Virus record (IMG/VR): IMGVR_UViG_3300029305_011788 | Coordinates: 1-64,000 of that record | From: a virus | Taxonomy: Duplodnaviria > Caudoviricetes | DNA length: 64,000 bases | Direction: 5' to 3' (one strand) | Shown here: piece by piece, positions 19,797 to 40,577 of the stretch | Position numbering within the stretch: position 1 is the first letter of the stretch | Layout of the letters: each line of letters opens with the position of its first letter | Notes under the pieces: model-generated | Seen by the model: the letters and a program-made list of their open reading frames with translations, nothing else | The model's database searches: none | What the model was told of the DNA's origin: nothing | Position numbers and translations under genes: made by a program

Positions 19797-22463
19797 TCAG
19801 ATGACCACAAGATCATGGTCGGGTTCATCATATACAGATCCCTGCATTTCGTGACGGATACATCTGTCAAGTGCCATGATCCAAGCCACAATGCCGTCAA
19901 TCTTTTCTGTCGATTTCTTTTTACTCGGTTTGATGTTCTCCGCCGCATCAATTTCAGCAACCACATTGCCCGCCATCCAGCGCAGGACAGGGTTGCCGCC
20001 GTGTATAAACTGCCCTTCGAGAATGAGCTTGTACAGTTCTTTCATCGGCGGGGACATATCCTTGAAGCCCATGCCCATCGGAACAACGGTAAAGCCGTCA
20101 CCCTCAAGGTCGGTGATAAGCTGTGTGGCATTCCAGCGGTCGGCAGCAATTTCCTTGATGTTGTACATCGTGTGCAGCTCGTTGATCGTTTTCCGCACGA
20201 AATTATAATCGACCACATTGCCCTCGGTGATATGAAATAATCCCATGCGCTCCCATACATCGTAGGGAACATGGTCTCGGCGCACTCGCAAATCAAGCGT
20301 TTCTCTTGGCAGCCAGAAGTGCGGGACAACGATGTATTTCTCGCCGTCATGCAGCGGAGGGAACACCAGCACAAATGCCGTGATGTCCGATGTGCTGGAC
20401 AGGTCAAGACCTGCGTAGCATTCCCGTCCCCGCAGTTTTTCAAGGTCGATAGGAAGATTGCCCCTGTCGTAGATATGCTCCGGAATCCATGCAACGATGC
20501 TACCAACCCACTGATCAAGACGTAGCTGACGGAATACATTTTCTTCCGCAGGATTCGTCAGTGCTTCACGGTGGGCATCACGCACTCGGTCAATGGTGAT
20601 TGTGTATCCGAGCGATGGATTTGCCTTGTACCAAGATTCCTCGGCATTCCAGTCATCGCCGTCATTCAGTCCGTAGATGACCGGATAAAAGGACGGATCA
20701 ATACGCCGTCCATCGAGAATGTCTTTTGCTTTGGTGTGATACTCGTAGCAGATGCTGTTGCGGTCAGTGCCGGCGGTTGTAATCAGGAAGTACAGCGGCT
20801 GAGTACGGGCATCGCCGGATCCCTTTGTCAGAACATCCACAAGGCTGCGGTTCGGCTGGGCATGAAGTTCATCCAAAACCAGACCGGATACATTCAGTCC
20901 GTGTTTTGTACCGACTTCTGCTGAAAGCACCTGATAGAATCCCACATTGCTGTAGTTCACCAGCCGTTTTGTCGCCGCCATGATCTTGGAGCGTTTCAGG
21001 AGCGCCGGTGTCATTTCCACCATTCGCTTTGCTACATCGAATACGATGGATGCCTGCTGTCGGTCGGCGGCTGCACCATAGACCTCAGCGGAAGGCTCAT
21101 TGTCGGCGTAAAGCAGATACAGTGCAATTGCCGCCGCAAGCTCACTGTTGTGCGTAGGCATAAACGATGTTCCTGCAAGATATTGGTGGCTCGGACTGTC
21201 CACCTGAATGCACTGCATTTTCACAGGATGATCCACAGGCTGAATGTCCAGTAAATAATGAAAACAGGAGCGAGTTTCTTCCACCCGCGCCCGTGTGCGT
21301 GTGTACTTTCGTTTCAGTCTTGATGTCGGCTGATCGTCAAAGGTAGTAAACCGGACGATATACAAAATCTCTCCGGTCGGCCACCCATGCCGAGTAGAAG
21401 GCTCACATTTCACTGCATTTTTGATACCGAGCGACCACAGCAGTTCTCTGACGGAAAGCGCCAGTTCTCGCAGTGTTGTGACATACACACTTTGCCCCTT
21501 TCGTTCGCCGATACAGCCGTCCGAATCCATCAGACCTTGCAGCAATGCCCACCGCTGCTCTGTGGATGCTCTCAGATATTCCGGTCGGATCTTTTTTTCA
21601 CGGAAGCTGTCAAGCAGGACCGCCTTCAGTTCACTGTACTTTATGATCTCACTGCCGCCGCATTTCTGCGGATAACGGTTGTGTACCTTATACGGAATAT
21701 TCGAGATGATGTCCTCGACATCCTCCGTCCGAACAGTAATCTCCGGCTTGGTGGCATTGCCGTTTCCGAGCCAGTAGCCGTACAGATATGGATCAATCGG
21801 TAAATCTGCCGCCTTTGTCTGAAGGACACCGCATACCGGAATTCGGATAAGGGAATCCCGCTTTGACTGCGGTCTGTCGGAAAAACGCTGTCTGTATTCC
21901 GAAGTCCTGCGATAGATCTCACCGGTTGTCCAGAGGACATCTTTGCACTTGCCGTAAATATACTGACAGTTCCACAGATGCCGTTCTCCGGCGATGATCG
22001 AAGTGCCGTCTTTGAAGGTCAGCTTGTAGGCTTGCTCTGTATCATCCACAGGGCTTTTCGCAACCACATGGCACGGATTTCCGTTCTCATCAAATACAGT
22101 ATCTCCGACCTTCAGATCGCCCATATTGGTGAATCCCTGCGGAGTCGGAATAGGCGTATCCAGAGCGAGCTGCTTTCCATTTTTCTTTGGAATTTCGACA
22201 TAGGCTGTGCGGAATTGCCTCGTATCATCCTCTTTGACGATGCCAAAAATGTCACGAATGATCTGTTCCTGCCACGGCAATAACCAGAACGGCTTTCCCG
22301 CCCATCTGCCTTTGGTATGGCACAGGTTTTCAATGAAGCGCACAGCCCTGTCCGCCTTCGCCGCATCGTAGTGCGATTCCGGCAGCATGAAGCGTGTCGG
22401 CTGGTAGTTCTTCAGCTTCGGATAGTTTTTCGGGCGCTCCCGCGCCCTTGCCGTTCCTGCCAT
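19797..22463 (-). CDS. terL: Terminase large subunit, interrupted by an intein
   Basis: Exteins join as YVEIPKKNGK|SELAA (Walker A); VLDELH Walker B; GLDLS and KIDG nuclease motifs. Confidence 0.95.
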   Translation of the reverse strand: MAGTARARERPKNYPKLKNYQPTRFMLPESHYDAAKADRAVRFIENLCHTKGRWAGKPFWLLPWQEQIIRDIFGIVKEDDTRQFRTAYVEIPKKNGKQLALDTPIPTPQGFTNMGDLKVGDTVFDENGNPCHVVAKSPVDDTEQAYKLTFKDGTSIIAGERHLWNCQYIYGKCKDVLWTTGEIYRRTSEYRQRFSDRPQSKRDSLIRIPVCGVLQTKAADLPIDPYLYGYWLGNGNATKPEITVRTEDVEDIISNIPYKVHNRYPQKCGGSEIIKYSELKAVLLDSFREKKIRPEYLRASTEQRWALLQGLMDSDGCIGERKGQSVYVTTLRELALSVRELLWSLGIKNAVKCEPSTRHGWPTGEILYIVRFTTFDDQPTSRLKRKYTRTRARVEETRSCFHYLLDIQPVDHPVKMQCIQVDSPSHQYLAGTSFMPTHNSELAAAIALYLLYADNEPSAEVYGAAADRQQASIVFDVAKRMVEMTPALLKRSKIMAATKRLVNYSNVGFYQVLSAEVGTKHGLNVSGLVLDELHAQPNRSLVDVLTKGSGDARTQPLYFLITTAGTDRNSICYEYHTKAKDILDGRRIDPSFYPVIYGLNDGDDWNAEESWYKANPSLGYTITIDRVRDAHREALTNPAEENVFRQLRLDQWVGSIVAWIPEHIYDRGNLPIDLEKLRGRECYAGLDLSSTSDITAFVLVFPPLHDGEKYIVVPHFWLPRETLDLRVRRDHVPYDVWERMGLFHITEGNVVDYNFVRKTINELHTMYNIKEIAADRWNATQLITDLEGDGFTVVPMGMGFKDMSPPMKELYKLILEGQFIHGGNPVLRWMAGNVVAEIDAAENIKPSKKKSTEKIDGIVAWIMALDRCIRHEMQGSVYDEPDHDLVVI
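21147..22172 (-). mobile_element. 342-aa class 3 intein with LAGLIDADG homing endonuclease
   Basis: Starts QLALDTPIP and ends PTHN followed by Ser; W in RHLW, C in MQCIQV, T in THN; endonuclease blocks YGYWLGNG and LQGLMDSDG. Confidence 0.9.
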
Positions 22464-22936
22464 CAGCCACCTCCGAGCAATTCATCCATATCGTCAACGG
22501 CAGCGTTTTTCATATCCGCACCGGCTGTGATACGGCTTCTTGCCGCCGGAGTCAGACCGAACTGCTCTGCGATCTTATTCATGATTTTCAGATAGGTCTG
22601 AGCAATGGACACCTGCGGAACCTGCTGCCAGTAGCCGGACTTCGTTTTTACAATCGTACCGTGCTGCGTCATAAATTCCTCGGCTTCCTTCCAACGGGCG
22701 TATGCCTGACAGTACGATGCGAATGCCGCCTGATCGACCTCGGTTAGCACACCGATCTGTTCGAGCTGTTTAGACAGCCTGCGCCATTCCTTTTTCGCTT
22801 CCGGCTCCAACCACTTCGGACAAGGCGGCGCTTTGCGTTCCGGCTTCGGCTCTGCATCATTCAGCGGACGCTTGCCCGGATTTCCTTCCAGCTCTTTGAT
22901 CGCTGTCGGCTTTGGTTTTCTGCCTCTCTGAGCCAT
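22463..22936 (-). CDS. terS: Terminase small subunit, P27 family
   Basis: MAQRGRKPKPTAIKELEGNPGKR and FGLTPAARSRI; TGATG overlap with terL. Confidence 0.92.
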   Translation of the reverse strand: MAQRGRKPKPTAIKELEGNPGKRPLNDAEPKPERKAPPCPKWLEPEAKKEWRRLSKQLEQIGVLTEVDQAAFASYCQAYARWKEAEEFMTQHGTIVKTKSGYWQQVPQVSIAQTYLKIMNKIAEQFGLTPAARSRITAGADMKNAAVDDMDELLGGG

Positions 22937-23021
22937 CCGCATCACTCCTTCCTCAAAAAATCTGCATAAAGAAAAGACCTGCATGCTGCAAGCCTCTCCT
23001 ATGTATAAAACCACCATGAAT

Positions 23022-23285
23022 TTATCCGTTCAGCATATCCAGCATCAGCCTTGCGCCGTCACGAAAGCCTCTCGTGTAGCTGTCCTCTGAGGTGATCGAT
23101 TCCATCTGTCGGTGAAGGTCGATCAATGCCTCGAATGCTTCCGCAGTATCCGCTTTCATTCCGTCAGCGATCTGATTGTGCAGATCTTCCGCGCGCCCGT
23201 TCAGGTTGTCGTAATCGTCCGCCCTGACCTTGATATCTGTAGGTGCGCTGATTCTGCCCCGGTATAACTCGCTGATTGCTCCCAT
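23022..23285 (-). CDS. Small hypothetical protein
   Basis: GGAGG RBS; ends YTRGFRDGARLM. Confidence 0.7.
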   Translation of the reverse strand: MGAISELYRGRISAPTDIKVRADDYDNLNGRAEDLHNQIADGMKADTAEAFEALIDLHRQMESITSEDSYTRGFRDGARLMLDMLNG

Positions 23286-23350
23286 CCGCTTCACCTCCTT
23301 GCCGTGGGGCGATGGGGCGGCTTTGTGCTGCCGCCCGCCGTCCGTTTTGT

Positions 23351-23575
23351 TCAGTTGAACTTGTCGAGGAGCATCCGAAGGACTGCCTTGGTGTCCTTGT
23401 CAGCCGCCCTGACATCCATGCCCCGGTCGTAGTTGAAAACCGTCTCGCCGTTGCGCTCAATCCAGATCTTCGAGGCTCTGCCCTCCTTGTAGCCGAACTC
23501 GCTGGGCTCCTCGAAGTGCTTCACGCTGTAGCGGTATTCCCTCCCGTTGTAGTTGATCGTGCCGTGTGTCCACAT
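23351..23575 (-). CDS. Array cargo: hypothetical 74 aa (MWTHGT...)
   Basis: Follows repeat promoter 1. Confidence 0.75.
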   Translation of the reverse strand: MWTHGTINYNGREYRYSVKHFEEPSEFGYKEGRASKIWIERNGETVFNYDRGMDVRAADKDTKAVLRMLLDKFN

Positions 23576-23861
23576 AGTGTTTACCTCGTTCTTTCGTAGT
23601 TTTCGGTAGGCTTTGCCCTTCCGTTGTACCCATATTACCATAGGTCGGCGGATATATCAAGCGGCTAAACTGCCAGAATGTGCAGGGCGATTTTTCGGCG
23701 TTTGTTGTACATATTATGCCTTTCCCCAGAAGGCGCACAGTCGCCCTGTGTGGGCGGCTTTCAGTGTGGGGCAAGTTATCCGCAGGAGCCTCAAAAGCCG
23801 CGACACAGGCGAACGTGGCGCGGAACAGCCCCTCCGCAGAAGGACTGCTCCGTTTTGGCAA

Positions 23862-24134
23862 TCAGCCGCCGTAGTACTCCTCGATGTACTGTGTGCCGTC
23901 CTCCTCGGTGACCACGCTGGGGAACCGTACCTTGTGTCCCTGCTCGGTCATGATGCCCGCGGCAAGGTCGGCGATCTCACCGAGGAATGCCATGTCCCAT
24001 TCGAGGTCGGGGTTCTCGGTCAGCACCTTGCAGAATTCAAAGGCTGCCTCGTAGATGTCATCGTTGCGGTCTGCTTGCGCATCGGTCAGTTCCAGATTCT
24101 CGGCTTCGCCGCACTTTGTAGTGTTCTCGTTCAT
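23862..24134 (-). CDS. Array cargo: acidic hypothetical 90 aa
   Basis: Follows repeat promoter 2; GGAGG RBS. Confidence 0.75.
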   Translation of the reverse strand: MNENTTKCGEAENLELTDAQADRNDDIYEAAFEFCKVLTENPDLEWDMAFLGEIADLAAGIMTEQGHKVRFPSVVTEEDGTQYIEEYYGG

Positions 24135-24381
24135 GTAGATTTCCTCCGTTTTTCGTTGTTTTCGGTTCGGTTTCCCGTTCCGTTGTACACACTATAACTC
24201 TTTTTTCGCACATTATCAAGCGTGAGTAATCACGATCATACCGGCTGTTTTTTGCACTGAATTGTGTACATTATAGCTTGCGGTAAATTGCGCCAGAACG
24301 CGCAGTGTGGGCGGCTTTTATCTCAGGGCAAGTGATCCGCAGGAAAGCCGTAAGCCACCACACAGGCGAACGTGGCGCAAG

Positions 24382-24561
24382 TCAGGGCTTGCTGTTTCTG
24401 CCCAGCTCGTAGGCTCTTGCCAGCATCATGCGGAGCGTCATTATGCTGACCTCGGTGGTATCCGCATCAATGCCCCGGAAGTCCAGCCCGCCGCGCTCAG
24501 CAAGCACAAGGCTTTCTTCCATTGCGATCTGCTCCAATGCCTTCTGGATTTCGGTATCCAT
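24382..24561 (-). CDS. Array cargo: 59-aa hypothetical, absent from the ORF track
   Basis: Hand-translated MDTEIQKALEQIAMEESLVLAERGGLDFRGIDADTTEVSIMTLRMMLARAYELGRNSKP with an AAAGGAG RBS; similar to the C-terminus of 26723-27088. Confidence 0.7.
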   Translation of the reverse strand: MDTEIQKALEQIAMEESLVLAERGGLDFRGIDADTTEVSIMTLRMMLARAYELGRNSKP

Positions 24562-24615
24562 GTATGCGCTCCTTTCGGTGGATGCCGCCCCTCCGGAGAA
24601 GGGCGGCTCGTTTTC

Positions 24616-24978
24616 TCAGCCTGCGAAGTTTTCAAGGTAGTCGCTGATCGCCTTTGCCGTTTTGGTGTAGTCCGCTGCGGTTGGGCGGTAGCCGTACCAC
24701 TTGGGGTCATTGTAAGCCGTCCAGACGTAAAGCCCGTCGTGCTTGCCCCAAAGGTCCTCGAACTTCACCGTCAGGCTGTCGATCTTGCCCTCGGTGCGGT
24801 TCAGCACCGTGATCAGGATGCCGTAGCGGCGGTCCGCCTCGATGCATCTTGCGAACTCGACCTTCACCGTGGTGGTGTCGGTCAGGCGGGCGATGCAGGC
24901 GCTTCCGACCAGCTTGGGGTTCTTCATGGCGGTGACCTTTGCGGTCATCTTCTTCAGTTCGGTTTCAAAAAAGTTCAT
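24616..24978 (-). CDS. Array cargo: hypothetical 120 aa (MNFFETELKK...)
   Basis: Follows repeat promoter 3; GGAGG RBS. Confidence 0.75.
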   Translation of the reverse strand: MNFFETELKKMTAKVTAMKNPKLVGSACIARLTDTTTVKVEFARCIEADRRYGILITVLNRTEGKIDSLTVKFEDLWGKHDGLYVWTAYNDPKWYGYRPTAADYTKTAKAISDYLENFAG

Positions 24979-25170
24979 GGTGGAATCCTCCGTTTGTTTT
25001 ATTCGGCGGGGCGTTTGCCCTTCCGTTGTGTCACATATTACCATGATCTCCCCGGAATAGCAAGCGGCTAAACTACCAGAATGTGCAAGGCGATTTTTCG
25101 CTGATTGTTGTACATATTATGCCGCCGCCCGAAGGCGCGGAGCAGAGCCGAAGCCCTGCCCCTGATGCGG

Positions 25171-25548
25171 TCAGAGCATTACGCGGATGCCTTCGACCTC
25201 GTAGTCGTCCATGACATGATAGTCGTTGTCGTTGCGGGTAATGGAATCAAGCCCATACACCGTACAGCCGAGCCGTCTCATCTGATGCAGTGCTTCAATC
25301 AGAACTGTGGTTTTTGCCGTTACCACAATGGTTGTGATATTGGCAATGCGGAGCGTGTTAAGAAAATCCTCCATGTCGCCCTCGTTCGGCAGGTCGGTCA
25401 CTTCGTACTTGCTGCTGTTGTGACGGCGGCTGTCCTTGTAGTTCCACAGTGCCTTCCTTGCACCGAGGCTGTAGCCCGACTTCTGACCGTTGCTCTTGCG
25501 TTCGTAGATTTTGCGATCCATCTGTTCAAACGTGTAAATGATATCCAT
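25171..25548 (-). CDS. Array cargo: hypothetical 125 aa
   Basis: AAAGGAG RBS before MDIIYT. Confidence 0.7.
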   Translation of the reverse strand: MDIIYTFEQMDRKIYERKSNGQKSGYSLGARKALWNYKDSRRHNSSKYEVTDLPNEGDMEDFLNTLRIANITTIVVTAKTTVLIEALHQMRRLGCTVYGLDSITRNDNDYHVMDDYEVEGIRVML

Positions 25549-25603
25549 GTATTTTCTCCTTTCGGCATTCGGCTGCCCGGTGAAGGGCAGCCCCGCCTTT
25601 GTT

Positions 25604-25960
25604 TTAGTCAATAATGTGCAGCACCACCATGCCATTCGGTGTCGGGATGAAGATTTCAGGCTCCCAGAAGATTGCCTTGTACTTTTCGATCTGCTCATCG
25701 GTCAGCCCTGTGAAATCCTCGAAGCCCAGTCCGCAGACGAAGAAGGTACCTTTGATCGGGCCGTATTTCTCAACCGTTCTGTTCCATGCAAGGTCATCGC
25801 GGAACAGCCCCTCCTCGTTGCACACAACGGCGATGTTGTCGGTTTCGCTCGGATACAAGGCCTGAATGTAGCCATCCACCTCCGCCTGAAGGTTCTCAAG
25901 GGTGTGTTCGATGTCCTTGACGTAGGGGCGCTTGCCGGGTTCGCATACCAGAATTTTCAT
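25604..25960 (-). CDS. Array cargo: DUF3846-like protein
   Basis: MKILVCEPGKRPY...LQAEVDGYIQ...CNEEG...NR...GTFFVCG. Confidence 0.7.
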   Translation of the reverse strand: MKILVCEPGKRPYVKDIEHTLENLQAEVDGYIQALYPSETDNIAVVCNEEGLFRDDLAWNRTVEKYGPIKGTFFVCGLGFEDFTGLTDEQIEKYKAIFWEPEIFIPTPNGMVVLHIID

Positions 25961-26196
25961 GTAGATTCGCTCCTTTTGTATGATTCCGCTTGTCTGGCGG
26001 TAGTGACATATTAACTCTTTTTCTGCGATAAGTCCACGCCTTTTCGCAAAATAAATGTACCAGACATGAGCCGATATTTCAGGCGGAATTGTACATCGCA
26101 AAGAACGCGCACAGTCGCGCCGTGTGGGGCGGTTTTCCGCAGTGGCAAGTTATCCGCTGTCGCCATGAAAAGCCCCACACAAGCGAACGTGGCGGC

Positions 26197-26475
26197 TTAT
26201 TCCGCCCTCTGCCGTGCAAGCTCTGCTCTGAGCTGTGTCAGTTCGCATAGCATCTCAAATGAGCGTCCGTACTGCTCCATGTATGCAGCGATGTCGTAGT
26301 CTGCGCAGCACAGCAGCTCGAACTTGTCGGTCACGCCGTTCTTTCCGACCGTGAACTTTGCCTTTCTCGGAAACTGCCGGTCGAGCGTGCCTTCAAAGCC
26401 GTGCTTGTTGAACCAGTCGATTGCGTACATCTCCTCGTTGGAAAGTACCCTTGTCGCTTTGATCAGGTCGATCAT
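26197..26475 (-). CDS. Array cargo: hypothetical 92 aa
   Basis: Coupled to the upstream ORF by a 4-nt overlap. Confidence 0.7.
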   Translation of the reverse strand: MIDLIKATRVLSNEEMYAIDWFNKHGFEGTLDRQFPRKAKFTVGKNGVTDKFELLCCADYDIAAYMEQYGRSFEMLCELTQLRAELARQRAE

Positions 26476-26660
26476 TCTTTCTCACCTCCGTATTCCTTAA
26501 GGTAGGCGTTCACGCGGTCGCCGTAGCCCATCTCAGCAAGCTCCTGCGGTTCAAGGACTTCCAGAAGTGCTTCCATTGCAATCCGCTCAGTGAGCAGTCC
26601 ATCCGTTGAAAGGTTCGCAATGATTGCGGTCAGGCATCTGACCTGTTCGTATGTATCCAT
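26472..26660 (-). CDS. Array cargo: hypothetical 62 aa
   Basis: GAAGGAG RBS. Confidence 0.65.
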   Translation of the reverse strand: MDTYEQVRCLTAIIANLSTDGLLTERIAMEALLEVLEPQELAEMGYGDRVNAYLKEYGGEKE

Positions 26661-26722
26661 GTTCTTTCCTCCTTCGGGTTTGGCAGCCCCTCCCTGCGGA
26701 AGGGCTGCGCTGCTCCGTTCGT

Positions 26723-27088
26723 TTACTTGCTCTTGCGTCCTGCCTCATAGGCTTCTTTCAGGGCTGCTTCCAGTCCCCAGACCGAAACCTCGATGAAGTC
26801 CTCGCGGTCGCAGTGGCGGGTTTCGAGGTCTCCGCGCTCGGCTACCAGAATCAGGTGCTTTGCGGCAATCTCGTAGACCTTCTTGTCGATGCCCTCCAGC
26901 GGATGCTCGGCTCTCTGCAGCTCGCGCTCGTATTTGGCGATGCTGCTGTCCATGTTCTTCAGTGCCTGCGCCTTTGAGATACCGTAGACCTCAAGGCAGA
27001 CCTCTTCGGTCATCTGCTCGGTGGCGGCTCTGCCGTTCCGCAGGAAGTTCAGGGTGGTCTTGATCTCGTTCAGCTTTTTCTTGGTCAT
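26723..27088 (-). CDS. Array cargo: hypothetical 121 aa with ERGDLETR..D..DF.EVSVW..ALKEAYEAG domain
   Basis: Follows repeat promoter 5. Confidence 0.75.
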   Translation of the reverse strand: MTKKKLNEIKTTLNFLRNGRAATEQMTEEVCLEVYGISKAQALKNMDSSIAKYERELQRAEHPLEGIDKKVYEIAAKHLILVAERGDLETRHCDREDFIEVSVWGLEAALKEAYEAGRKSK

Positions 27089-27372
27089 GGTGGTGTACCT
27101 CCGTTTTTTGTTTTCGGCTGGGCTGTCTGCCCTTCCGTTGTGTCACATATTACCATGATCTTTCCGGAATAGCAAGCGGCTAAATGTACAGAATGAAATC
27201 GGCGTATCTTCGTCATTTGTTGTACATAGTACACCATGCCCACAGGAAGTTCACAAATGCGCCAGAATGCGCCGTGTGGGGCGGTTTTCCGCAGGGGCAA
27301 GTTCATCGCTCACCGCAGGAAAACCGCACACAGGCGAACGTGGGGCAAGCCAGCCCCGCAGGGCTGAACTTG

Positions 27373-27756
27373 TCAGCCCTCGGTCGGCGGAATCCACTGT
27401 CCCGTCCTTTCATCGAAAAGGTAGTAATACGGGATGCCCCAGTCGTCTCTCATCAGCGAAACAACGCTCTTGTGGGTGACCGCAGGCTGCATCGGCTCGT
27501 TGCGGTCGCGGTGGTATGCAACCGTCACGCCCTCCGCGGGCTTCTCGAAGCTGTGCGGCTCGTCCGCATCCGGCGCAAGGCGCTCACCGAGGATGCTGAT
27601 GTCTCCGAGGGCAAGCAGCGCCTTGACCTTCTCTGCGGTGTTGTAATGCTCGGTGAGGATCGGCATCTGGTGGTCGGGGTAGCCGTCCCAGTGGCAGTAG
27701 ATCGTTTCCGTGGTGCCGTCCTCGTGCAGGATGCCGATTCTTGAATTCGTGCTCAT
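27373..27756 (-). CDS. Array cargo: hypothetical (MSTNSRIG...IYCHWDGYP)
   Basis: Follows repeat promoter 6. Confidence 0.75.
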   Translation of the reverse strand: MSTNSRIGILHEDGTTETIYCHWDGYPDHQMPILTEHYNTAEKVKALLALGDISILGERLAPDADEPHSFEKPAEGVTVAYHRDRNEPMQPAVTHKSVVSLMRDDWGIPYYYLFDERTGQWIPPTEG

Positions 27757-27958
27757 GTTCATAGACCTCCGTTTTTTTTGTTTTCGGCGGGCTGTCTGCC
27801 CTTGCCGTTGTGTCACATATTACCATGATCTAGCCGATAAGTCCACGTCTATGTGCAAAATAAATCGTAGAAGAATCGCCGTATTCACCCTTTCGTATTG
27901 TCGGATGTACACATGAGTGAAAGGGTGGAGCAGAGCCGAAGCCCTGCCCCTGTTGCGT

Positions 27959-28453
27959 TCACCCCTTCAGCTCATCCTCGGTCATCAGCCTGAAGTTTTT
28001 GTCCTGCCAGAAGGAAATGTAAACATCGTAGCGGACATCCCATTCGCTTTCGTAATATTCGTCTGCTTCCTCATCGTATTCCTCGCTGGTCTCGACCTCT
28101 GTATAGCTGTAGACCTCTCTCTGCTCGAAGCCCTCGCCCCAGCCGTCGCTGTACTGTCCGCTGAGGTATTCCTTGAGCTGTGCTGTGTCATCATCCGTCC
28201 AGTCGTCATCTACCTCGCAGGTGGCAAGTCCGTAGAGCTTTCTGCCAACCCACTCTGCGCTCATTGTGACCTTGTGGAGCTTTTTGTAGTAGGTTGCGCC
28301 GTGGTAGTCGTCTGCGTACTCGGCAAGGTCGGTATTGTCGTTCTCCAGTGTTTCGATAAGCTCTGCGGCGTACTCCTCGGCGGGGGCTGTGAAGCAGTTG
28401 CTTTCGCTTGCAATCTGGGCAATCAGCGGATTGTAAATTTTCAGGGTTTTCAT
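27959..28453 (-). CDS. Array cargo: acidic hypothetical (GQYSDGWGEGFEQ motif)
   Basis: Follows repeat promoter 7. Confidence 0.75.
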   Translation of the reverse strand: MKTLKIYNPLIAQIASESNCFTAPAEEYAAELIETLENDNTDLAEYADDYHGATYYKKLHKVTMSAEWVGRKLYGLATCEVDDDWTDDDTAQLKEYLSGQYSDGWGEGFEQREVYSYTEVETSEEYDEEADEYYESEWDVRYDVYISFWQDKNFRLMTEDELKG

Positions 28454-28709
28454 GGTGGTGTACCTCCGTTTTTGTTTTCGGCGGGCTGTCTGCCCTTCCG
28501 TTGTGTCACATATTACCGCCTTTTGCCTGAAAAGTCCACGCCTATGTGCAAAATAAATCGTAGAAGAATCGCCGATTTTCGCAGTTATAACTGGTACATA
28601 TACCAACGCCCCACAGGAGGCTCACAAACGCGCCGTGTCGCGCCCGAAATCCTCCCAACAAACAAGCGGCGCAGAGCCGTAGAGCCCCACACCGCCCGTT
28701 GTACGCCCC

Positions 28710-28913
28710 TTATTCGGGAATGTACTTGTCGTGGATGATGCCGAGGATCTTGTCCTGTTCATCGATGCTGATGCCCATGCTTTCGAGGGCTTCCCTCGTG
28801 CCGCAGTCGGGGCAGATCAGTGTATCGTTGTCGTAGCGGGACAGCGCCGGTCGCTCGGTGTAGGTGCGTCCGCACTTGGGGCATTTGCGTGGTTCGTTTA
28901 CTCGGTCTTTCAT
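28710..28913 (-). CDS. Array cargo: small Zn-ribbon protein
   Basis: CPKC...CPDC. Confidence 0.7.
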   Translation of the reverse strand: MKDRVNEPRKCPKCGRTYTERPALSRYDNDTLICPDCGTREALESMGISIDEQDKILGIIHDKYIPE

Positions 28914-28964
28914 TTGAATTCCTCCTATGTAGTTGGTGGTGTGCCGCCCGAAGGCGGCAGGCTG

Positions 28965-29228
28965 CTATTCTTCGGTTCGTTCGGTGTGGCTGAGGATCTC
29001 TGCGGCGCTGCCCGACTCTGCGTATCCGCAGTCCCAGATGGCGAGGAGCATCTCCTCGTCGGTTTCGGGAACCTTGATGCTGTAGGTGATCTTCCGTGCC
29101 CGAATGTCGATCAGCATCTTGGTGGTGATCTCAAGGAAGTCGGCGGGGATCTCTCTGGTCGTGCCGTCCTTTGCGATCAGGCGGACTCCGTGGCGGCGAA
29201 GGCTTTCAATATGTTCTTGGCTGGTCAT
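28965..29228 (-). CDS. Array cargo: hypothetical 87 aa
   Basis: Follows repeat promoter 8. Confidence 0.65.
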   Translation of the reverse strand: MTSQEHIESLRRHGVRLIAKDGTTREIPADFLEITTKMLIDIRARKITYSIKVPETDEEMLLAIWDCGYAESGSAAEILSHTERTEE

Positions 29229-29513
29229 GTTCAGGACTCCTTTGCGTTATTTTCCCTTGCGGTAGTGACATATTAACTCTTTTCGGGGCTGATTGCAAGC
29301 GGCTAAATGTACAGATCATGATGGGCGATTTTTCGGCAGTCATTGTTCAATTTATGCCTTGCCCACATTTGCGCCGTGTCGCGCTGTGTGGCGCGGTTGA
29401 CTGAGATGGGATAACCGTTCGGAGGATACCCCTTCCGCCCCACACGGGGCGACGTGGGCGCTGTGTGTGCGCCCGTGCCGTTCCGCTTTGCATCCGCCCC
29501 GCAGGGCAGGCCG

Positions 29514-30458
29514 TTAAGGCCTGCCGAAGCGGAATGCGTTGTCGCCAGTCAGGTTTTCAGTTAAAACCGTTCTGGCAGTCTCGAACTCGGCTCCGATAAA
29601 GCCCATTCTCATCAGCCAAGTCCGCATTGCGAACTTTTTGTTTTCCTTCTGCTGTTCCTTGGGGCTTGCGCTTCTGAGGTCCTTTGCCATCTGGCTCATT
29701 GCGAGGCAAAGCTGAATGTAGCTCTTGAGCTTGCCTGCGTGGAGTCCGTTCTGCTTGCCGTTGGAAGGCGGTGCGAACTGGAAAAGTCTGAACTCGACCG
29801 TGCCTTTTGTGAAGGTCGCGTGCAGGTTGAGCATGTGGTATCGGCTGCCGTTGTAGTGGTGCGTTCTGCCGCTGCTGTAGCCCTGCGAACCGTACCAGAT
29901 GTCCGCAAGCTGTGCCATCGTGCGGGGCTTTCTGCGGTTGAGCTGTTCAAGGAATCGCGGGTCAACCGTTCTGCAATACTGGCTCATTCTGTAGCTGTCA
30001 ACCTTGATTGCCTCGGCGATCAGCGTTTCGTGGCTTGCCATGATGTTCGCAAGGTTTCTGAGGCTCTGCGGTGTGTGTCCCTGTGCGCCGATGTGAATGT
30101 GGACTCCGCATCCTCTTGTGTAGTCGCTCTTTGCGCCTGCCTTGCGGAGTCTTCTCACAAGCTCCTGCAGGGTTTCGATGTCTGCGTAGTGCAGGATCGG
30201 TGTGACCAGTTCGCACTTTTCGCTGTCGGAGCCTGCGATGCTGACATCCTTCTGGAACTTCCACTCGCGTCCCTGTGCGTCCCATGCGCTGTAGGTTTCG
30301 TAGCCGTTGCGGTGGCCTGTGTACTCGGTGCGGTCTGTGCCGAAGAACTCGGCGGCAAGCTGTGCGGCAGCCTTGCGGGTGATGTTGTTCATCTCGATCT
30401 CAACCCCAATGGTCTGCTCCTTCATTCTGTTGATCTGCTGTGCGGTCTTCTCAGTCAT
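29514..30458 (-). CDS. Amidoligase (COOH-NH2 ligase type 2)
   Basis: TIGVEIE, KDVSI, CELVTP, CGVHIHIG, RYHMLN, TVEFRLF motifs. Confidence 0.85.
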   Translation of the reverse strand: MTEKTAQQINRMKEQTIGVEIEMNNITRKAAAQLAAEFFGTDRTEYTGHRNGYETYSAWDAQGREWKFQKDVSIAGSDSEKCELVTPILHYADIETLQELVRRLRKAGAKSDYTRGCGVHIHIGAQGHTPQSLRNLANIMASHETLIAEAIKVDSYRMSQYCRTVDPRFLEQLNRRKPRTMAQLADIWYGSQGYSSGRTHHYNGSRYHMLNLHATFTKGTVEFRLFQFAPPSNGKQNGLHAGKLKSYIQLCLAMSQMAKDLRSASPKEQQKENKKFAMRTWLMRMGFIGAEFETARTVLTENLTGDNAFRFGRP

Positions 30459-30603
30459 TTTTGTATCCTCCGTTTCGGTTTTCGGTGGGCTGTCTGCCCT
30501 TCCGTTGTGTCACATATTACCGTCTTTCGGAGGATATATCAAGCGGCTAAATGTACAGATCATTTCGGTGTATTTTTCCCGTATCTCTGGTACTTTTACA
30601 TAC

Positions 30604-30738
30604 TTGATAAACTTGCAATTCTATGGTAAACTTGGATACGATGGAATAGGTTCTCACATTTTCGGGAGCCCCAGTGCGGTATAAAATCGGCGGTCGGGAA
30701 GGCAGAAATCCAGCCCTGCCATTCCGCCGTTTTTTCTT
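30604..30738 (+). ncRNA. Candidate ~100-nt small RNA with its own promoter and terminator
   Basis: TTGATA-17-TAAACT with TG at 30604-30632; GGTTCTC/GGGAGCC stem; long CGGCGG...CCGCCG stem + T-tract; no ORF beyond M-E-stop. Confidence 0.45.
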
Positions 30739-31208
30739 TATCTATACAGATGCCTTGTGCTTTGCTCGTAGGCTTCGTAGAGGAATTCGGGATCGAATCC
30801 GAATGACCGATAACCTGTCACGCAAGTCCAGAAGTATCGGGGTGTCGGTTCTCCGAGCCGTCGCTTTTCATTCATGATGTACAGAAAGCCGTTTGTCATC
30901 ACCGTCCTGCCGCTTGCAGTGCGGAACACCGGGAGTCTGATCTCCTTTTTATAGTAGCAGACCGGGCAGCCTTCGTAGCGATCGAGCATCTTCTCATGCT
31001 CCGCTGTGACCTCCCAGACCGCGATTGGAACAACGCCGTCCGGCTTCGGCTCGATGGTCAGGTAGAATCCGGTCTTGCTGCCTTTGAAGAGCAGCTCGTA
31101 ACCTTCGAGCAGCGCCGTTCCTACCGGCTTTGCACCGGGGCATCGCATCTGCATCTGTCTGCGGTTGAGGTTGCTCCCGTAGGCGAGGTAGTATCTTTTC
31201 TTGCTCAT
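30738..31208 (-). CDS. Gamma-glutamylcyclotransferase-family protein
   Basis: YLAYGSNL and LDRYEG motifs. Confidence 0.85.
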   Translation of the reverse strand: MSKKRYYLAYGSNLNRRQMQMRCPGAKPVGTALLEGYELLFKGSKTGFYLTIEPKPDGVVPIAVWEVTAEHEKMLDRYEGCPVCYYKKEIRLPVFRTASGRTVMTNGFLYIMNEKRRLGEPTPRYFWTCVTGYRSFGFDPEFLYEAYEQSTRHLYR

Positions 31209-31464
31209 GTGATCTCCTCCGTTCAGGGTATTTGGCGGGCATCCTGCCTTGCCGTTGTGTAGCATATTACCATACCCTGCGGAGGTTATCAAGCGGGTAA
31301 ATGTACAGATCATAACGGGCGATTCCTCGCCGTTTGTTGTGCATATTACGCCTTGCCGTAAAACGCGCCGTGTCGCGCTGTGTGGGGCATAAACCGTAAC
31401 GGAGTAACTGTCGGAGGATACCCGCAAAGCCCCACACAGGCGAGCGTGGCGCATTTGTGCGCGT

Positions 31465-31881
31465 TCAGCGGCCGGACAGAGATTCCTGCCGAGCCTGTTC
31501 GAGAAAGGTCATTTCAAGACCGTTCATTTCATATCCCTCGCGGATGATGCTGTAGTAGCCGGGGCTGGGCGGTCGGACTCCCTTGCTGTTCATAATGTAG
31601 ACCATCGCATCAACGGTCTTGCCGTTCAGCTCGACCTGCACTGTCTCCCTGCGGTAAAGGTGCGGGTAGCCCTCGTAGCGGTCAAGCGGAATCTCATCCG
31701 CAGGCTTGATGTTCCAGAGCAGAACGGGAACGCTGCGGTCGGGATCGGGCTCGATGGTCGCCACGCCGTTGAATACCAGCCGGTAGCCGTAGAGCGTACT
31801 TGTGCCGAGGACTTCGGCTGTGGGGCAGCGCCGCTGCATCTGCCCGATGTGAAGGTTTGAGCCATAGGCTAAGTAGATCAT
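31465..31881 (-). CDS. Gamma-glutamylcyclotransferase-family protein (second paralogue)
   Basis: YLAYGSNL and LDRYEGYP motifs. Confidence 0.85.
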   Translation of the reverse strand: MIYLAYGSNLHIGQMQRRCPTAEVLGTSTLYGYRLVFNGVATIEPDPDRSVPVLLWNIKPADEIPLDRYEGYPHLYRRETVQVELNGKTVDAMVYIMNSKGVRPPSPGYYSIIREGYEMNGLEMTFLEQARQESLSGR

Positions 31882-32120
31882 GATTTTTCCTCCTCGTTGG
31901 TGATGATTGTGAATTCGTCTGCGCCTTCGATCAGGGAAAGCGTTCTGCCGTTGTCCCATTTCATATGGACATTGCCGGCATCGTCAATATAATCAACGGA
32001 ACCGGTCGTTCCGGGCGGAATGGGTGCGTAGGGATCGTCCATGTGATTCAGGCGGATGCGGGTGCCTGCGGGATAACGCTCCCGCAGGGCTTTCAGTTCA
32101 TGTTCATTCGGAAACCGCAT
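31878..32120 (-). CDS. DUF4314-like small protein
   Basis: YPAGTRIRL..MDDP...IPPGT.G.V..IDDAG..H..WDNG..L.LI.G.D. Confidence 0.75.
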   Translation of the reverse strand: MRFPNEHELKALRERYPAGTRIRLNHMDDPYAPIPPGTTGSVDYIDDAGNVHMKWDNGRTLSLIEGADEFTIITNEEEKS

Positions 32121-33096
32121 CGTACTCTTCCTCCTCGGTGGTCTGTGCGGCTGCCTTTGCCGCCTCACGCTTTGCCTTTTGGCGCTCCGTCCATTTTGCC
32201 TTTTCCTCATCGTTGCGGAAAGCGGTATGCCCGGTCAGATGCTCCAGAAGGATGCGGCGGTCGGTCTTGTGGTCTGCGCCGCCGAAGCCGATGCGTACCA
32301 GCCAGACGCGCATTGCGTACTTCTCGTTGCTGTCATCGACATCCTTTGCCTGCACGCGCTTCTGCGTCAGTGCCATGCTGTTCATCGCTGCGGCGAGGTT
32401 CGTGAATGCCTGCACATGGTCGGCATCCGGCGCTTCACCAAAACCGTCAAAGATGAGCTTGTCATCGGCAAATCGGATGCCCTTCAGTTCAGGGTTCGTT
32501 TCTTCCCATTCTCTGATAAAGGCGATCAGCTCGTAAGTGCTGCGGAACTCATGTCCGCCAATCTCATCCACAAGGCTCTTATCGGCGGCGAATGCTCCGC
32601 AGGTCGCCTTGCTGAGAAGTGCGCCCCTTGCGTGGATCATGCAGATGAGGTTCGTGAGGCTCTGCACCGTGTGGTCAGCCAGCGGAAGTGCGACCGTTAC
32701 CGCAATCGGGAAGCCGTCCGTTTCGGTCTCCGGCTCATTGTCATTGGTGACCTCTTCATCGGTGTCCGGCGTATCCTCCTCGGTGTCGGAAATGATGGTC
32801 ACATCAATCTCGACATAGTCCTCTTCGGCTTCCGTTACGGTATCCGTTCCTGCCGGCGGAGTGATTGTCTCGCCGTTGTAGCCTGCATCGGCAAGTCCGT
32901 CCAGCACCTTCTCCACGATCTCGGTGTCGCTGCGGTCGGTGAAGCTGAGGACCGCGTCCTTGCCGAGGGTAAAGATGTCGATCTGGTAGGCGCAGCTCGG
33001 AACGCCGAGGTACTTGACCTCTGCACCGATGATCTCTGCGATTTTCTGTGCCAGTGCCTTGCGCTGGCTCTTTTCGATATTGTACTTGATTTCCAT
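32104..33096 (-). CDS. Conserved phage protein (often labelled 'virulence-related protein'; function unknown)
   Basis: KYLGVPSCAYQI and NEKYAMRVWLVRIGFGG motifs; first gene after repeat promoter 11. Confidence 0.7.
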   Translation of the reverse strand: MEIKYNIEKSQRKALAQKIAEIIGAEVKYLGVPSCAYQIDIFTLGKDAVLSFTDRSDTEIVEKVLDGLADAGYNGETITPPAGTDTVTEAEEDYVEIDVTIISDTEEDTPDTDEEVTNDNEPETETDGFPIAVTVALPLADHTVQSLTNLICMIHARGALLSKATCGAFAADKSLVDEIGGHEFRSTYELIAFIREWEETNPELKGIRFADDKLIFDGFGEAPDADHVQAFTNLAAAMNSMALTQKRVQAKDVDDSNEKYAMRVWLVRIGFGGADHKTDRRILLEHLTGHTAFRNDEEKAKWTERQKAKREAAKAAAQTTEEEEYDAVSE

Positions 33097-33331
33097 AATA
33101 AAACCTCCGTTTTTACTGCCGCCCCTTGCGCCTTGTGCGCTTGGGCTGCGGCGTTTTCGTAGTCACATATTACCGCCTTTTGCCCCGGAATGCAAGACTG
33201 TAAAACGGAGAATGTACGGGGCATATCCGCCCCTGTGATTGTGCATAATACGAGTGTAAAAAAGAAGCCTGCGGCAGAACATCTGATTTAGTATCAGAAC
33301 GTTCACAATTTGCTGCAAGGCTTCTTTATTA

Positions 33332-33670: not shown

Positions 33671-33783
33671 ACCGCACAACTCCTGATAGATATATTTTAG
33701 ATACACTTTATATCCATTTCAAACATTATACCACAAAACAGGTCTAAAATAAAGTCATAATATATCTGAAAGGAAGTTATTTT

Positions 33784-34043: not shown

Positions 34044-36515
34044 TCACTTTTGTGTATCTCTCTGCGCTGCCCATGCGATGCCGGAAAGCACGAAGTATAC
34101 GACCGGCTCTGAGACACCGTTGCCCCACAGCTTGTACTCCGCTGAATCCGTGTACGGATCAGCCAGCCATTTTCTGATCTGCTTTTCCGTTTTCGGCTTG
34201 CCCTTGGGATTGGTGATTTGCCGCCATGTTTCCCAGACCTCCGTCCAGAAAGCGATCTCCTCATCGGAAGGATCAGTAATTGCAAGGTCGGCACACCACC
34301 AGTCAGGGAATCCCTGTAATCGTGCACATTCAACGGGAGTCAAGCGGCGTACAATATATACCGGCTCGTCATTCGGAAGGTCGTTTACAAGCGGAGGATC
34401 CTTCCTGTCGGAAGCGACAAGCGTGTTTGCTTGTTCATGCGCAGCGACCGTGTGGTGTGAATTCTTGCTTGTGCAGTAATGATCTGCGGGGGCTGCGACT
34501 GTTGCAGTTCCTCTTGCAACAGCCGTAACGGATACATCCTCCGAAACGGCGAAGTGATTGTCGCGGGAGATTGTGAAGGAGGGATCAGGCGCGGCTACGC
34601 AATGGCGATCTGCGGTATTCAACGTGAAACATACATCCTCGTTGATGCCATCACCCTGCGGACCGTTTTGATCGGCACGACCGATCATTGAGCCTTGCAG
34701 AGCGTAGGTCTCCGGCTCAGCTACCACAACAGCCTGCTGATTATCCCCGGCATTTGCACGGAGCGTACCACTTTTGCCGTCACTATATACATGACCGCCG
34801 ATGCGGGATGCCGCCCCCGGTTCGAGAGCGACCACCGCAACTCCTCCATGATTCGAGTCTGGCGATCCCTCGCCGGTATCAAGGCATCGTGAAATCTGCG
34901 TCGGGTAGCAATGCCCACGAGCGTTTTTCGTGCCGTCCGATGTGAAACGCACATCGAATGTTTCCGGCGCAGGTGCTACCACGCAGATGCCGCCCTGATT
35001 CGATGTGACCGAATTTCCGCCGCTTTGGTCGAGTGTCCTGCTTGTGGTCGCTTCATAGAAACCGCTGTGCGGATTGTCCGACATCATCGCATTGGAATGC
35101 TTGCTGCATACACCGAAGGCATGGATATCCGGCTGGAAGAGCGTCTGGTCATTATTCGTACCGAGCGTTGCTGACTTGTCGGTCTGCCAGAGAGCGCCCT
35201 TGCCTCCACCGCTGCACCCCGCCCTTATCTTCAGCGTGACAGGTTCAGCGACAAGTGGCGTATTGTTTCCGCCTGTTCCGGCTCGTCCGCAGAGCGTCTG
35301 AAACACACCGTCGGGATTGATTTTCGCTCTTCCGTCCGTGGGATTATTCTCCACCACAAGCGGCTGATTGTTGCCGCCCATGCCGTAGGTAGCAGTCACA
35401 GGCTGGGCTACTTCCAGAGGTCCTCTGAATCGGCTGTCTTGCCCGTGATTTTCATAAAGTTCCATTGCCGCCGGAACGACACCGGCTCTCAGCGTCGGGG
35501 AGACTTCCTCCTCGTAACCGATGCTCCGAGCCTTTGCGCTGTGTTCGGTTGAGAATCCCGCCGCCTGCAGGACACCGTTTCTGCCGGTTGACATTCCGCA
35601 GTTCACACCGAGCGTTGCTGCGGTATCATCTGTAACCGCAGCATTGTAGCCGTCAATGCCGACCGCATGAAGCACCGCCGGATGATTGCCGTGATCCTGT
35701 GCGACCAGAGCGAGCGCCTTGTCCTCGGTGATGCCGACACCGGAATTGCCCTGCGGATTCAGGCAGAGGGTTCCACCTCCAGCGTCAGACCGCCCGCCTG
35801 TCTCTCCAGCGCTTTCCGCAGCACCTCCGGCAGTTCCTTGCCACGAACGGAAGCCCTGCGGAGTATACCCAGACACGCCTTCGGACTTAAATAGTATTTC
35901 TCCGGCACTTCCGCCAGCAAAATCTGCGACAAGGTAGATTCTTGCTCTGCGCTGGGGGACACCCCAGTATTGAGCGTCGAAAACTCGGTAAGCCACGCTC
36001 CATCCGTTTCCCAGATATACGTCTGATTTTGCCCATCTGTGATTCTCAGGCGCAGGCACCTCGATCCCTTTTTCTTTAACTCCGATAACTGCTTCGAGGA
36101 CAGCTTTGAAATCGTCTCCTCCGTTGGAGGAGAAAGCGCCGGGGACGTTCTCCCAGACGCAGTATCGCGGGTATTGTCCATTTGTTGCATCCCTCATTTC
36201 TTTGATGATGCGAATCGCCTGAAAGAACAGGTTCGACCGATCACCGTCATGGATTCCGGCACGCTTGCCCGCAATGGACAGGTCCTGACACGGGCTGCCG
36301 AAGGTGATGATATCCACCGGCGGAAGCTCCGCACCGTTCAGCGTAGATACATCGCCGTAGTGCTTCACCTGTGGAAGCCGTCTGTGCGTGACAAGTACCG
36401 GAAAAGGTTCAATTTCGCTGCTCCACTTCGGCTCGATCCCTGCGAGGATGCCGCCAAGCGGAAAACCGCCGGAGCCGTCAAACAGGCTGCCGAGCGTCAG
36501 ATGTTTTGTTTTCAT
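34044..36515 (-). CDS. Cytosine-C5 DNA methyltransferase with very long variable region
   Basis: FDGSGG (I), GSPCQ (IV), ENVPG (VI), QRRAR (VIII), RRLTPVECARLQGFP (IX), GNGV (X). Confidence 0.92.
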   Translation of the reverse strand: MKTKHLTLGSLFDGSGGFPLGGILAGIEPKWSSEIEPFPVLVTHRRLPQVKHYGDVSTLNGAELPPVDIITFGSPCQDLSIAGKRAGIHDGDRSNLFFQAIRIIKEMRDATNGQYPRYCVWENVPGAFSSNGGDDFKAVLEAVIGVKEKGIEVPAPENHRWAKSDVYLGNGWSVAYRVFDAQYWGVPQRRARIYLVADFAGGSAGEILFKSEGVSGYTPQGFRSWQGTAGGAAESAGETGGRSDAGGGTLCLNPQGNSGVGITEDKALALVAQDHGNHPAVLHAVGIDGYNAAVTDDTAATLGVNCGMSTGRNGVLQAAGFSTEHSAKARSIGYEEEVSPTLRAGVVPAAMELYENHGQDSRFRGPLEVAQPVTATYGMGGNNQPLVVENNPTDGRAKINPDGVFQTLCGRAGTGGNNTPLVAEPVTLKIRAGCSGGGKGALWQTDKSATLGTNNDQTLFQPDIHAFGVCSKHSNAMMSDNPHSGFYEATTSRTLDQSGGNSVTSNQGGICVVAPAPETFDVRFTSDGTKNARGHCYPTQISRCLDTGEGSPDSNHGGVAVVALEPGAASRIGGHVYSDGKSGTLRANAGDNQQAVVVAEPETYALQGSMIGRADQNGPQGDGINEDVCFTLNTADRHCVAAPDPSFTISRDNHFAVSEDVSVTAVARGTATVAAPADHYCTSKNSHHTVAAHEQANTLVASDRKDPPLVNDLPNDEPVYIVRRLTPVECARLQGFPDWWCADLAITDPSDEEIAFWTEVWETWRQITNPKGKPKTEKQIRKWLADPYTDSAEYKLWGNGVSEPVVYFVLSGIAWAAQRDTQK

Positions 36516-40527: not shown

Positions 40528-40577
40528 ACGGCTCCTTTCCCGGTCATGATCTGCACAAGGAATGTGCGTTATCTGCG

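Follow-up and report, generated by a model that had tools for sequence, protein, structure and literature searches.

A probable modular expression-cassette region built on a repeated promoter-leader unit in a temperate siphophage lineage of rumen Oscillospiraceae/Ruminococcus

Why should one and the same intergenic leader recur, over some 10 kb of a phage genome, in front of small open reading frames (ORFs) that are for the most part unrelated? The question is raised by the 64,000-nucleotide stretch analyzed here (the window), which is the first 64 kb of the 72,226-bp IMG/VR provirus record IMGVR_UViG_3300029305_011788. In it, an array of such repeats, called promoter-leader units below, runs from 33.3 to 23.0 kb, between DNA-methylase genes and the small terminase gene terS. 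The answer that we favor, with a probability of roughly 0.65, is that the array is a modular expression-cassette region, whose units serve expression and also act as linkers for the exchange of cassettes by homologous recombination.

Eleven copies of the unit were found on the minus strand between 23.5 and 33.3 kb, each of them intergenic, about 195–290 bp long and followed by one to three ORFs, which amount to ~20 in total (Table 1). A profile hidden Markov model (HMM) and a covariance model each recovered 12 copies in the window, namely the 11 of the array plus another at 40592-40690, on the plus strand. An earlier reading of the DNA, made without database searches (the sequence-only reading), had counted eleven leaders and missed this twelfth; its description of their parts was borne out. 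The spacer between the -35-like hexamer (TTGATA in four units, TTGCTA in two, TTGCAA and TTGCAT in one each, and TGGACT in three) and the -10 was exactly 17 nt in 11/11 array units, and the -10 was TAATAT in ten of them and TATAGT in the other. The ACAACGG sequence and the GC hairpin leader followed in 8/11 array units and in the stray copy, units 1, 4, and 8 having a different leader, and a GGAG/GAGG Shine-Dalgarno (SD) sequence was present in all units, 6–10 nt before the ATG. Exact repeats of up to 36 nt, located around the -10, +1 and hairpin, were shared by the units. The degenerate pattern TTG(A/C)WW-N17-TAATAT occurred eight times in the window, every time inside a unit, against 0.02 expected, and a 20-mer around -10/+1 occurred six times with two mismatches or fewer, against 0 expected; chance is therefore ruled out. 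An Rfam scan of positions 22000–35000 detected no family, the sole match at E<=1 being a chance one to a plastid intron, and a weak covariance-model match upstream of the capsid gene was rejected as not being a real copy.

The conservation of the unit was analyzed in relatives recovered by the leader 18-mer alone, namely 51 IMG/VR contig stretches, many of them with two to four copies. The HMM detected 286 unit copies in these relatives, all in gene orientation and immediately before a start codon. When 115 distinct copies from ~50 related contigs were aligned, the spacer was 17 nt in 114/115, the -10 was TAATAT in 101/115, the -35 was TTGATA, TTGCTA or TGGACT in 103/115, and the SD was GGAGG in 104/115. 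Information was high at a box upstream of the -35, at the -35 and -10, over the first ~12 transcribed nt and at the SD, and low across the spacer, a pattern that has the appearance of the footprint of a working promoter and leader, and not merely of a recent duplication. The hairpin of the 5' untranslated region (UTR) was paired in 93% of cells, with compensatory changes in four of its seven pairs, and 0/500 shuffles gave pairing statistics as good. It begins 2–4 nt after the predicted +1, and single leaders fold into it while the SD stays open. In the mRNA decay of Firmicutes, a 5'-terminal stem-loop guards the transcript against 5'-end-dependent RNases; on the strength of this general knowledge, the 5' hairpin would be an mRNA 5' stabilizer.

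Two further repeated elements, not mentioned in the sequence-only reading, accompany the units. In six cassettes, the last stop codon is immediately followed by an imperfect hairpin of ~90 nt (hairpin A in Table 1), whose six clear copies have folding energies of -41 to -48 kcal/mol (z -2.1 to -4.9) and whose two arms are both conserved in primary sequence. That it is a canonical terminator is doubtful: the stem is stable, but the tail is too weak and the terminator scan did not exceed shuffles. It is predicted to be a transcript-end, insulator or attenuator element, and the roles that it may play include those of attenuator, 3' stabilizer or DNA-level site. The second element, found in many units between this hairpin and the promoter, is a look-alike consisting of a -10 and a small hairpin without a -35. 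Short GC hairpins were also observed on the minus strand between genes within cassettes, just before the next SD, at 25560-25600, 26690-26735, 24590-24625, and 28955-28975; at the leaderless junctions that hold them, homology breakpoints among relatives are as frequent as in the leader units.

In the mechanism that we propose, each unit would thus bring together three parts: a sigma-A-type promoter, formed by the -35 with its conserved upstream box, the 17-nt spacer and TAATAT; a 5' UTR whose first ~25 nt form a two-tier GC hairpin near the predicted 5' end; and an unstructured, A-rich linker with the consensus GGAGG. The ~90-nt hairpin would close many of the cassettes. Since each group of one to three small ORFs has its own promoter, leader and SD, and many have an end hairpin as well, each group would be expressible alone. 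The units would at the same time offer conserved linkers for homologous recombination, within one genome or between co-infecting relatives, and recombination from unit to unit could delete, insert or replace cassettes while leaving genes and regulation intact. A unit with its ORF could also land elsewhere as a moron.

The comparison of relatives provides the evidence for this exchange. The packaging proteins of the lineage are close to one another (identities of 90–98% for terS, 94–98% for terL and 89–98% for the portal), cargo identity among relatives is 30–100%, and many cassettes are absent or replaced. The content between the C5 methylase and terS varies widely: cassette 10 is missing in several relatives, the array of one contig (L019) is cut to four or five genes, and others carry cassettes that are absent from the window. 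In all, 62 ORF families were found in the arrays, 33 of them in at least two loci and 16 of those 33 absent from the window, figures that depend on rough gene calls. Some cassettes also changed position. Family F16 follows cassette 8 in 13 loci but precedes terS in two and comes after the ORF c4b in one, the displaced copies sharing a homologous block that begins ~100 nt upstream of the -10 and ends at the stop codon, and family F15 and the cassette 5 ORF (c5) were found in both orders (8 vs 2).

The clearest junction is that of contig L020, which is without cassette 10 and has a single unit between c9b and c11a. This unit corresponds to unit 10 from the stop codon, via the promoter, to the leader hairpin, and thereafter to unit 11 through the SD into c11a, a structure that one would expect from a crossover between two leaders or from the opposite event, an insertion. 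Among 252 units of relatives, the two halves matched the same window unit in 125 and two different units in 13, one half being novel in 68, so that the halves were discordant in 81/206 assignable units; the sub-segments of the unit (-35 box type, spacer end and +1 block) were seen in all four combinations. At least some of the cassette events appear to be crossovers inside the repeated units. An arrangement of another kind was seen in a 5-kb contig (L009:198-1800), in which a GGACT cassette and its leader are followed by the portal with no terS or terL match between; the contig represents a rearranged relative or else a chimera of the assembly.

The twelfth copy shows that a unit can be found outside the array. 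Together with a 62-aa ORF it forms cassette 12, which, in the window and in five relatives, is found in inverted orientation between nrdG and its neighbor. Across 27 relatives, this site is filled in five and empty in 21, where the two genes abut; the 427 bp of the window (40482-40908) stand in place of ~46 bp at the empty sites. With the insertion, NrdG acquires a C-terminal tail of 20 new residues, and the N-terminus of the downstream gene is new as well. No homologue of the 62-aa ORF was found among the array ORFs of the relatives, and no terminator was identified in cassette 12.

Several points weigh against the proposal that the units are linkers as well as expression signals. The sequence-only reading had the cassettes rearranged through their repeats; content does vary, L020 has its crossover in a leader and one unit was relocated outside the array, but cassette order is mostly colinear across relatives, so that turnover consists of cassettes being gained, lost and replaced while the frame stays colinear, relocations being few, and does not amount to free shuffling. 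That reading would also place the breakpoints at the leaders. The ends of 338 long homology blocks were indeed enriched in units (61% in 29% of positions) and scarce in ORF interiors (20% in 66% of positions), but leaderless gene junctions were at least as enriched (19% in 5% of positions), and block ends or ends of high-scoring segment pairs inside repeated sequence do not pinpoint crossovers. Breakpoints avoid gene interiors, but the leaders are not privileged over other gene borders, and much of the pattern could be due to selection against broken genes. On the side of expression, the use, timing and strength of the promoters are predictions from sequence. In a strict consensus scan, only five minus-strand units reached 9 of 12 or better, these being four cassette units and the promoter of the SLOG-like gene upstream of cassette 1, and the loci compared are not independent, several coming from one contig or from near-identical contigs. 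The tail of the ~90-nt hairpin, with a mean of 3 T in 10 nt and in many cases a TCCTG-like sequence, is not a canonical U-tract; when RNAalifold and pair counting were applied to this hairpin, the alignment was out of register and the core invariant. No terminator was found between cassette 11 and terS in the window. Finally, a dedicated factor, and not sigma-A, could be the reason why TAATAT is near-invariant and why boxes outside the hexamers are conserved.

This last point leads to the alternative that survives best, although we regard it as unlikely: the units would be conserved mainly in order to be read by a phage factor, either a sigma-like protein or an activator or repressor acting on the upstream box or the -10/+1 block. 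In that case, the array would represent a co-timed class of middle or early genes, its turnover would proceed by ordinary gene-boundary or illegitimate recombination, and the repeats would be incidental to it, as the abundance of breakpoints at leaderless junctions might suggest. Conservation does extend beyond the hexamers, to the upstream box, a G on either side of TAATAT and the ~12 nt that follow the -10, and TAATAT prevails in the units although the cI promoter of the same phage is a perfect TTGACA-17-TATAAT (~62646-62674, +). The early region encodes a sigma-70-family-like protein, with PF08281 and PF04545 (region 4) above cut-off and viral sigma-70-family factors as its nearest Atlas clusters, which is a candidate trans-acting factor for the array promoters. 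Because the phage encodes this protein, transcription of the units by host RNA polymerase alone is plausible and not proven. However, sigma region 2 was not detected in this protein or elsewhere in the provirus, and the hexamers and the 17-nt spacing already meet the needs of host sigma-A. The unit motif was found upstream of neither terS nor capsid nor any other gene; it would therefore be odd if a sigma were devoted to the units, and hence to accessory genes only. A search of the PDB with the sigma-like protein was uninformative, and an ArpU-type late regulator was not found in the provirus. A CI operator within the units was likewise considered and rejected: two exact copies of GTTCATATGT, 43 nt apart at 62500-62560 (+) upstream of the cI promoter, are probably the CI operators, and this sequence occurs only at the cI switch. 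The clean unit-unit chimeras also speak against incidental repeats. Moreover, the alternative concerns the reader of the promoters, and is compatible with recombination at the units.

A dedicated exchange platform is distinctly improbable. Here the ~90-nt hairpin and the boxes would recruit a phage recombination function, cassettes would be excised as circles and traded among co-infecting phages, and maybe with conjugative elements that have cargo families in common with them, and the array, situated beside terS at the end of the genome and perhaps the first DNA to be injected, would be an establishment or counter-defence bank whose genes are switched on immediately by their own promoters. Since no cos or pac site could be located, the idea of a first-injected end stays speculation.

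It is very improbable that the units are relics, that is, leftovers of tandem duplications of one ancestral cassette, or insertions resembling miniature inverted-repeat transposable elements (MITEs), with no present role. Paralogues do exist among the cargo (two GGACT, two DUF6900 and an amidoligase-like C-terminus in two ORFs), and the promoter-less -10/hairpin copy inside many units could be read in the same way, but most of the cargo is unrelated. The promoter-type conservation, the free spacer and the compensatory stem changes across ~50 diverged relatives point to purifying selection on function, and the uniform orientation of the 286 copies just upstream of start codons also argues against a relic.

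Least probable of all is an integron-like system, in which the ~90-nt hairpins would be attC-like sites cut and joined by a dedicated recombinase, the cassettes being excised as circles and inserted site-specifically. The hairpins are indeed attC-sized imperfect palindromes with conserved arms at cassette 3' ends, homology blocks frequently have one end only a few nt from the 5' edge of the hairpins, and the provirus has a tyrosine recombinase. Small, unrelated and variable cassettes are another feature shared with integron arrays. However, block ends at repeat edges are expected from the repeat alone, the junctions are so far scattered, and the documented crossover is homologous and lies in a leader, not in the hairpin. 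The sequence-only reading had seen no integrase in the window, and no recombinase gene was noticed there. The sole tyrosine recombinase, which is Xer-like, lies at 69591-70133 of the provirus (L146:1459-2532, -), 5.6 kb past the window end, near the prophage end and 36 kb from the array; it scored 37.7 bits against the integron-integrase model TIGR02249 (cut-off 265) and below every Xer/IntI cut-off, and no serine recombinase was found in the provirus. Membership of the integrons, which that reading had listed as a related concept, was rejected: there is no adjacent IntI, no attI and no Pc, the palindrome is without attC core sites and was found in about half of the cassettes (~6/12), and each cassette has its own promoter, unlike the promoterless cassettes of integrons.

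The closest known system is the modular shuffling of promoter-early stem-loop (PeSL) cassettes in T4-type phages, with morons second. In the hyperplastic regions of T4-type myoviruses, conserved promoter and stem-loop motifs recombine with one another, the crossovers falling in the interval from the -10 to the SD/ATG (Arbiol et al., 2010, PMC2839356; Comeau et al., 2014, PMC4122927). The sequence-only reading had rightly pointed to the PeSLs, which match the units in architecture and behavior; its proposal that the concept was undescribed does not hold, the logic being shared with these cassettes (PMC2839356; PMC4122927). In both systems, a conserved intergenic motif of ~100 bp or more, with a sigma-70-type promoter and one or more GC stem-loops, occurs at high density in a hyperplastic region of small ORFans; close relatives are set apart by motif-bounded ORFs that are inserted, deleted or replaced, crossovers fall between the -10 and the SD/ATG (here in L020), and each cassette brings its own expression signals. 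The repeated promoter motif, the adjacent stem-loop, the hyperplastic variable region and the products of motif-motif recombination that characterize the PeSL class were all found here, the class being a functional one and not a sequence family; indeed, units and PeSLs have no sequence similarity. The differences are also clear. The phage studied here is a temperate HK97-like siphophage of Gram-positive rumen anaerobes, whereas PeSLs belong to lytic T4-like phages of Proteobacteria, and the units stand in a single uninterrupted array, flanked by the DNA-modification and the packaging modules. A unit exceeds a PeSL in length, with three parts (90-nt hairpin, promoter-less look-alike, and promoter with 5'-UTR hairpin), and has a conserved GC-containing upstream box in place of an AT-rich UP region. 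Furthermore, the promoter and terminator activity of PeSLs and their mini-circles have been shown experimentally, whereas the units are described here at the level of sequence.

Morons are said to have been described in lambdoid and other temperate phages by the groups of Juhala and of Hendrix in 2000. They have been contrasted with PeSLs (PMC2839356). A moron is a gene with its own promoter, variably present between two phage genes. Cassette 12 fits this exactly, its site being empty in relatives, and is a textbook moron that carries the promoter-leader of the array. By contrast, morons are mutually unrelated and have no common flanks, whereas the 12 units share one promoter-leader and with it the homology for targeted exchange. 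Early-gene clusters with repeated strong promoters, such as the SPO1 host-takeover module, the T5 pre-early region and the T4 early regions, resemble the array in having many small uncharacterized genes in short operons, strong host-type promoters and strong ribosome-binding sites. Those clusters, however, belong to lytic phages and have defined timing and known shut-off functions, whereas this phage is temperate and has a CI-like repressor.

The phage belongs to a temperate, HK97-like siphophage lineage of rumen Oscillospiraceae/Ruminococcus. The leader 18-mer was present in contigs of metagenome-assembled genomes (MAGs) titled Ruminococcus sp., Oscillospiraceae and rumen Clostridia, and on the basis of these titles the host is most likely a member of the rumen Oscillospiraceae/Ruminococcus group; two short leader-bearing contigs binned as Bacteroidales and Chlorobiota are probably mis-binned. 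A megablast of the array against GenBank phages gave no match. Nearly all genes of the window are on the minus strand. Besides the sigma-70-region-4 protein, the early region encodes a DUF2800 nuclease, an Enc34-type single-stranded DNA-binding protein (SSB), PolA, a SNF2 helicase, a D5 primase, a MazF/PemK-like protein, a S-adenosylmethionine (SAM) synthetase, NrdD/NrdG and four or five DNA methyltransferases. The PemK/MazF-like toxin domain protein (49418-49924, -; E 2e-21) lies directly downstream of the D5 primase. The DNA modification genes (34044-40205 and 45626-46786, -) encode the C5 methylase of 823 aa, three N6/N4 methylases, one of them fused to ParB-N, a PAPS-reductase-like protein and the phage SAM synthetase. 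Past the array come terS (Terminase_4), whose real start lies probably close to 22937, terL with a LAGLIDADG insert, an HK97-type portal, a ClpP protease, capsid and tape measure. The terL product (19797-22463, -) has 888 aa, with a LAGLIDADG_3 domain at residues 303-370, ahead of the ATPase domain, which suggests an intein or a fused homing endonuclease; in the relatives, for which the gene calls are rough, the terL ORFs have 546–703 aa.

Table 1. Cassettes of the array, stray cassette 12 and selected flanking and regulatory genes in the window.
Feature	Coordinates	Strand	Description
C5 DNA methyltransferase (upstream flank)	34044..36515	-	Left border of array, conserved in relatives
SLOG/YAcAr-like gene	33332-33670	-	Own promoter; between C5 methyltransferase and cassette 1
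Cassette 1	31465..33331	-	Unit 33097-33331; promoter 33167-33195; variant leader
Cassette 1 ORF	33096-32104	-	330 aa, acidic; C-terminal part amidoligase-like
Cassette 1 ORF	32120-31878	-	DUF4314
Cassette 1 ORF	31881-31465	-	GGACT
Cassette 2	30738..31464	-	Hairpin A 31365-31453; promoter 31264-31292; hairpin leader
Cassette 2 ORF	31208-30738	-	GGACT paralogue
Cassette 3	29514..30737	-	Promoter 30514-30542; hairpin leader
Cassette 3 ORF	30458-29514	-	Amidoligase_2
Cassette 4	28710..29513	-	Hairpin A 29370-29458; promoter 29270-29298; variant leader
Cassette 4 ORF	29228-28965	-	87 aa
Cassette 4 ORF	28913-28710	-	67-aa zinc ribbon
Cassette 5	27959..28709	-	Promoter 28510-28538 (TGGACT type); hairpin leader
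Cassette 5 ORF (c5)	28453-27959	-	164 aa, net charge -28
Cassette 6	27373..27958	-	Promoter 27817-27845 (TGGACT type); hairpin leader
Cassette 6 ORF	27756-27373	-	127 aa, phrog_1987
Cassette 7	26197..27372	-	Hairpin A 27258-27347; promoter 27147-27175; hairpin leader
Cassette 7 ORF	27088-26723	-	DUF6900
Cassette 7 ORF	26660-26472	-	
Cassette 7 ORF	26475-26197	-	
Cassette 8	25171..26196	-	Hairpin A 26107-26195; promoter 26008-26036 (TGGACT type); variant leader
Cassette 8 ORF	25960-25604	-	DUF3846
Cassette 8 ORF	25548-25171	-	DUF7698
Cassette 9	24382..25170	-	Promoter 25035-25063; hairpin leader
Cassette 9 ORF	24978-24616	-	120 aa
Cassette 9 ORF	24561-24382	-	DUF6900
Cassette 10	23862..24381	-	Hairpin A 24289-24379; promoter 24191-24219 (TATAGT -10); hairpin leader
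Cassette 10 ORF	24134-23862	-	90 aa, net charge -17
Cassette 11	23022..23861	-	Hairpin A 23733-23821; promoter 23632-23660; hairpin leader
Cassette 11 ORF	23575-23351	-	DUF7678
Cassette 11 ORF	23285-23022	-	DUF6809; terS directly after
Small terminase terS (downstream flank)	22463..23017	-	Terminase_4; right border of array, conserved
Cassette 12 (stray, inverted)	40482..40908	+	Promoter 40603-40631; hairpin leader
Cassette 12 ORF	40688-40876	+	62 aa
Sigma-70-family-like protein	58346-59278	-	310 aa; region 4 at residues 258-305
CI-like repressor	62800-63789	+	Helix-turn-helix (HTH) and S24 peptidase; faces early region

With regard to the cargo, Pfam and PHROG names could be given to an Amidoligase_2, two GGACT, a DUF4314, a DUF3846, two DUF6900, a DUF7698, a DUF7678, a DUF6809 and a zinc ribbon protein, the rest being orphans. 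Strong acidity marks three of the cargo proteins, whose net charges are -33, -28, and -17. The PADLOC defence-family models gave 0 matches against ten cargo proteins, and no functional data on the cargo DUFs were found in the literature. The structure model of c5 was confident (pLDDT 87); Foldseek against the PDB returned nothing for it at E<=0.001, and the best VIA-align hit (Z 5.5) was within noise. Distant homologues of c5 were detected in conjugative elements (L150:1-16534 and L149:1-11463), where their neighbors are a TraG-type coupling protein/ATPase, a MobL relaxase, YodL, NlpC/P60, Fic, Amidoligase_2, DUF3846 and a SAM synthetase; no repeated leaders were found in these two loci. From these homologues and their neighbors, the cargo belongs to a gene pool common to phages and conjugative elements. 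This fits functions useful to incoming DNA and proves nothing about anti-defence. The anti-defence or host-takeover role that the sequence-only reading had given to the cargo would have these shared families as its sole hint.

To our knowledge, the only phages for which linker-mediated shuffling of the PeSL type was documented had been lytic T4-like ones with Gram-negative hosts, and the same logic is now seen in a temperate siphophage of Gram-positive rumen anaerobes, with ~50 natural variants that picture the gain, loss, replacement and relocation of cassettes. The unit itself, with its promoter, 5' hairpin and strong SD, makes a candidate for a compact expression module in Clostridia, and the cargo (amidoligase/GGACT, DUF3846, DUF4314, DUF6900 and very acidic small proteins) provides a list of candidates for helping incoming DNA to establish. 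Conserved promoter-leader linkers may thus be a general way for phages to keep accessory genes that are exchangeable and independently expressed.

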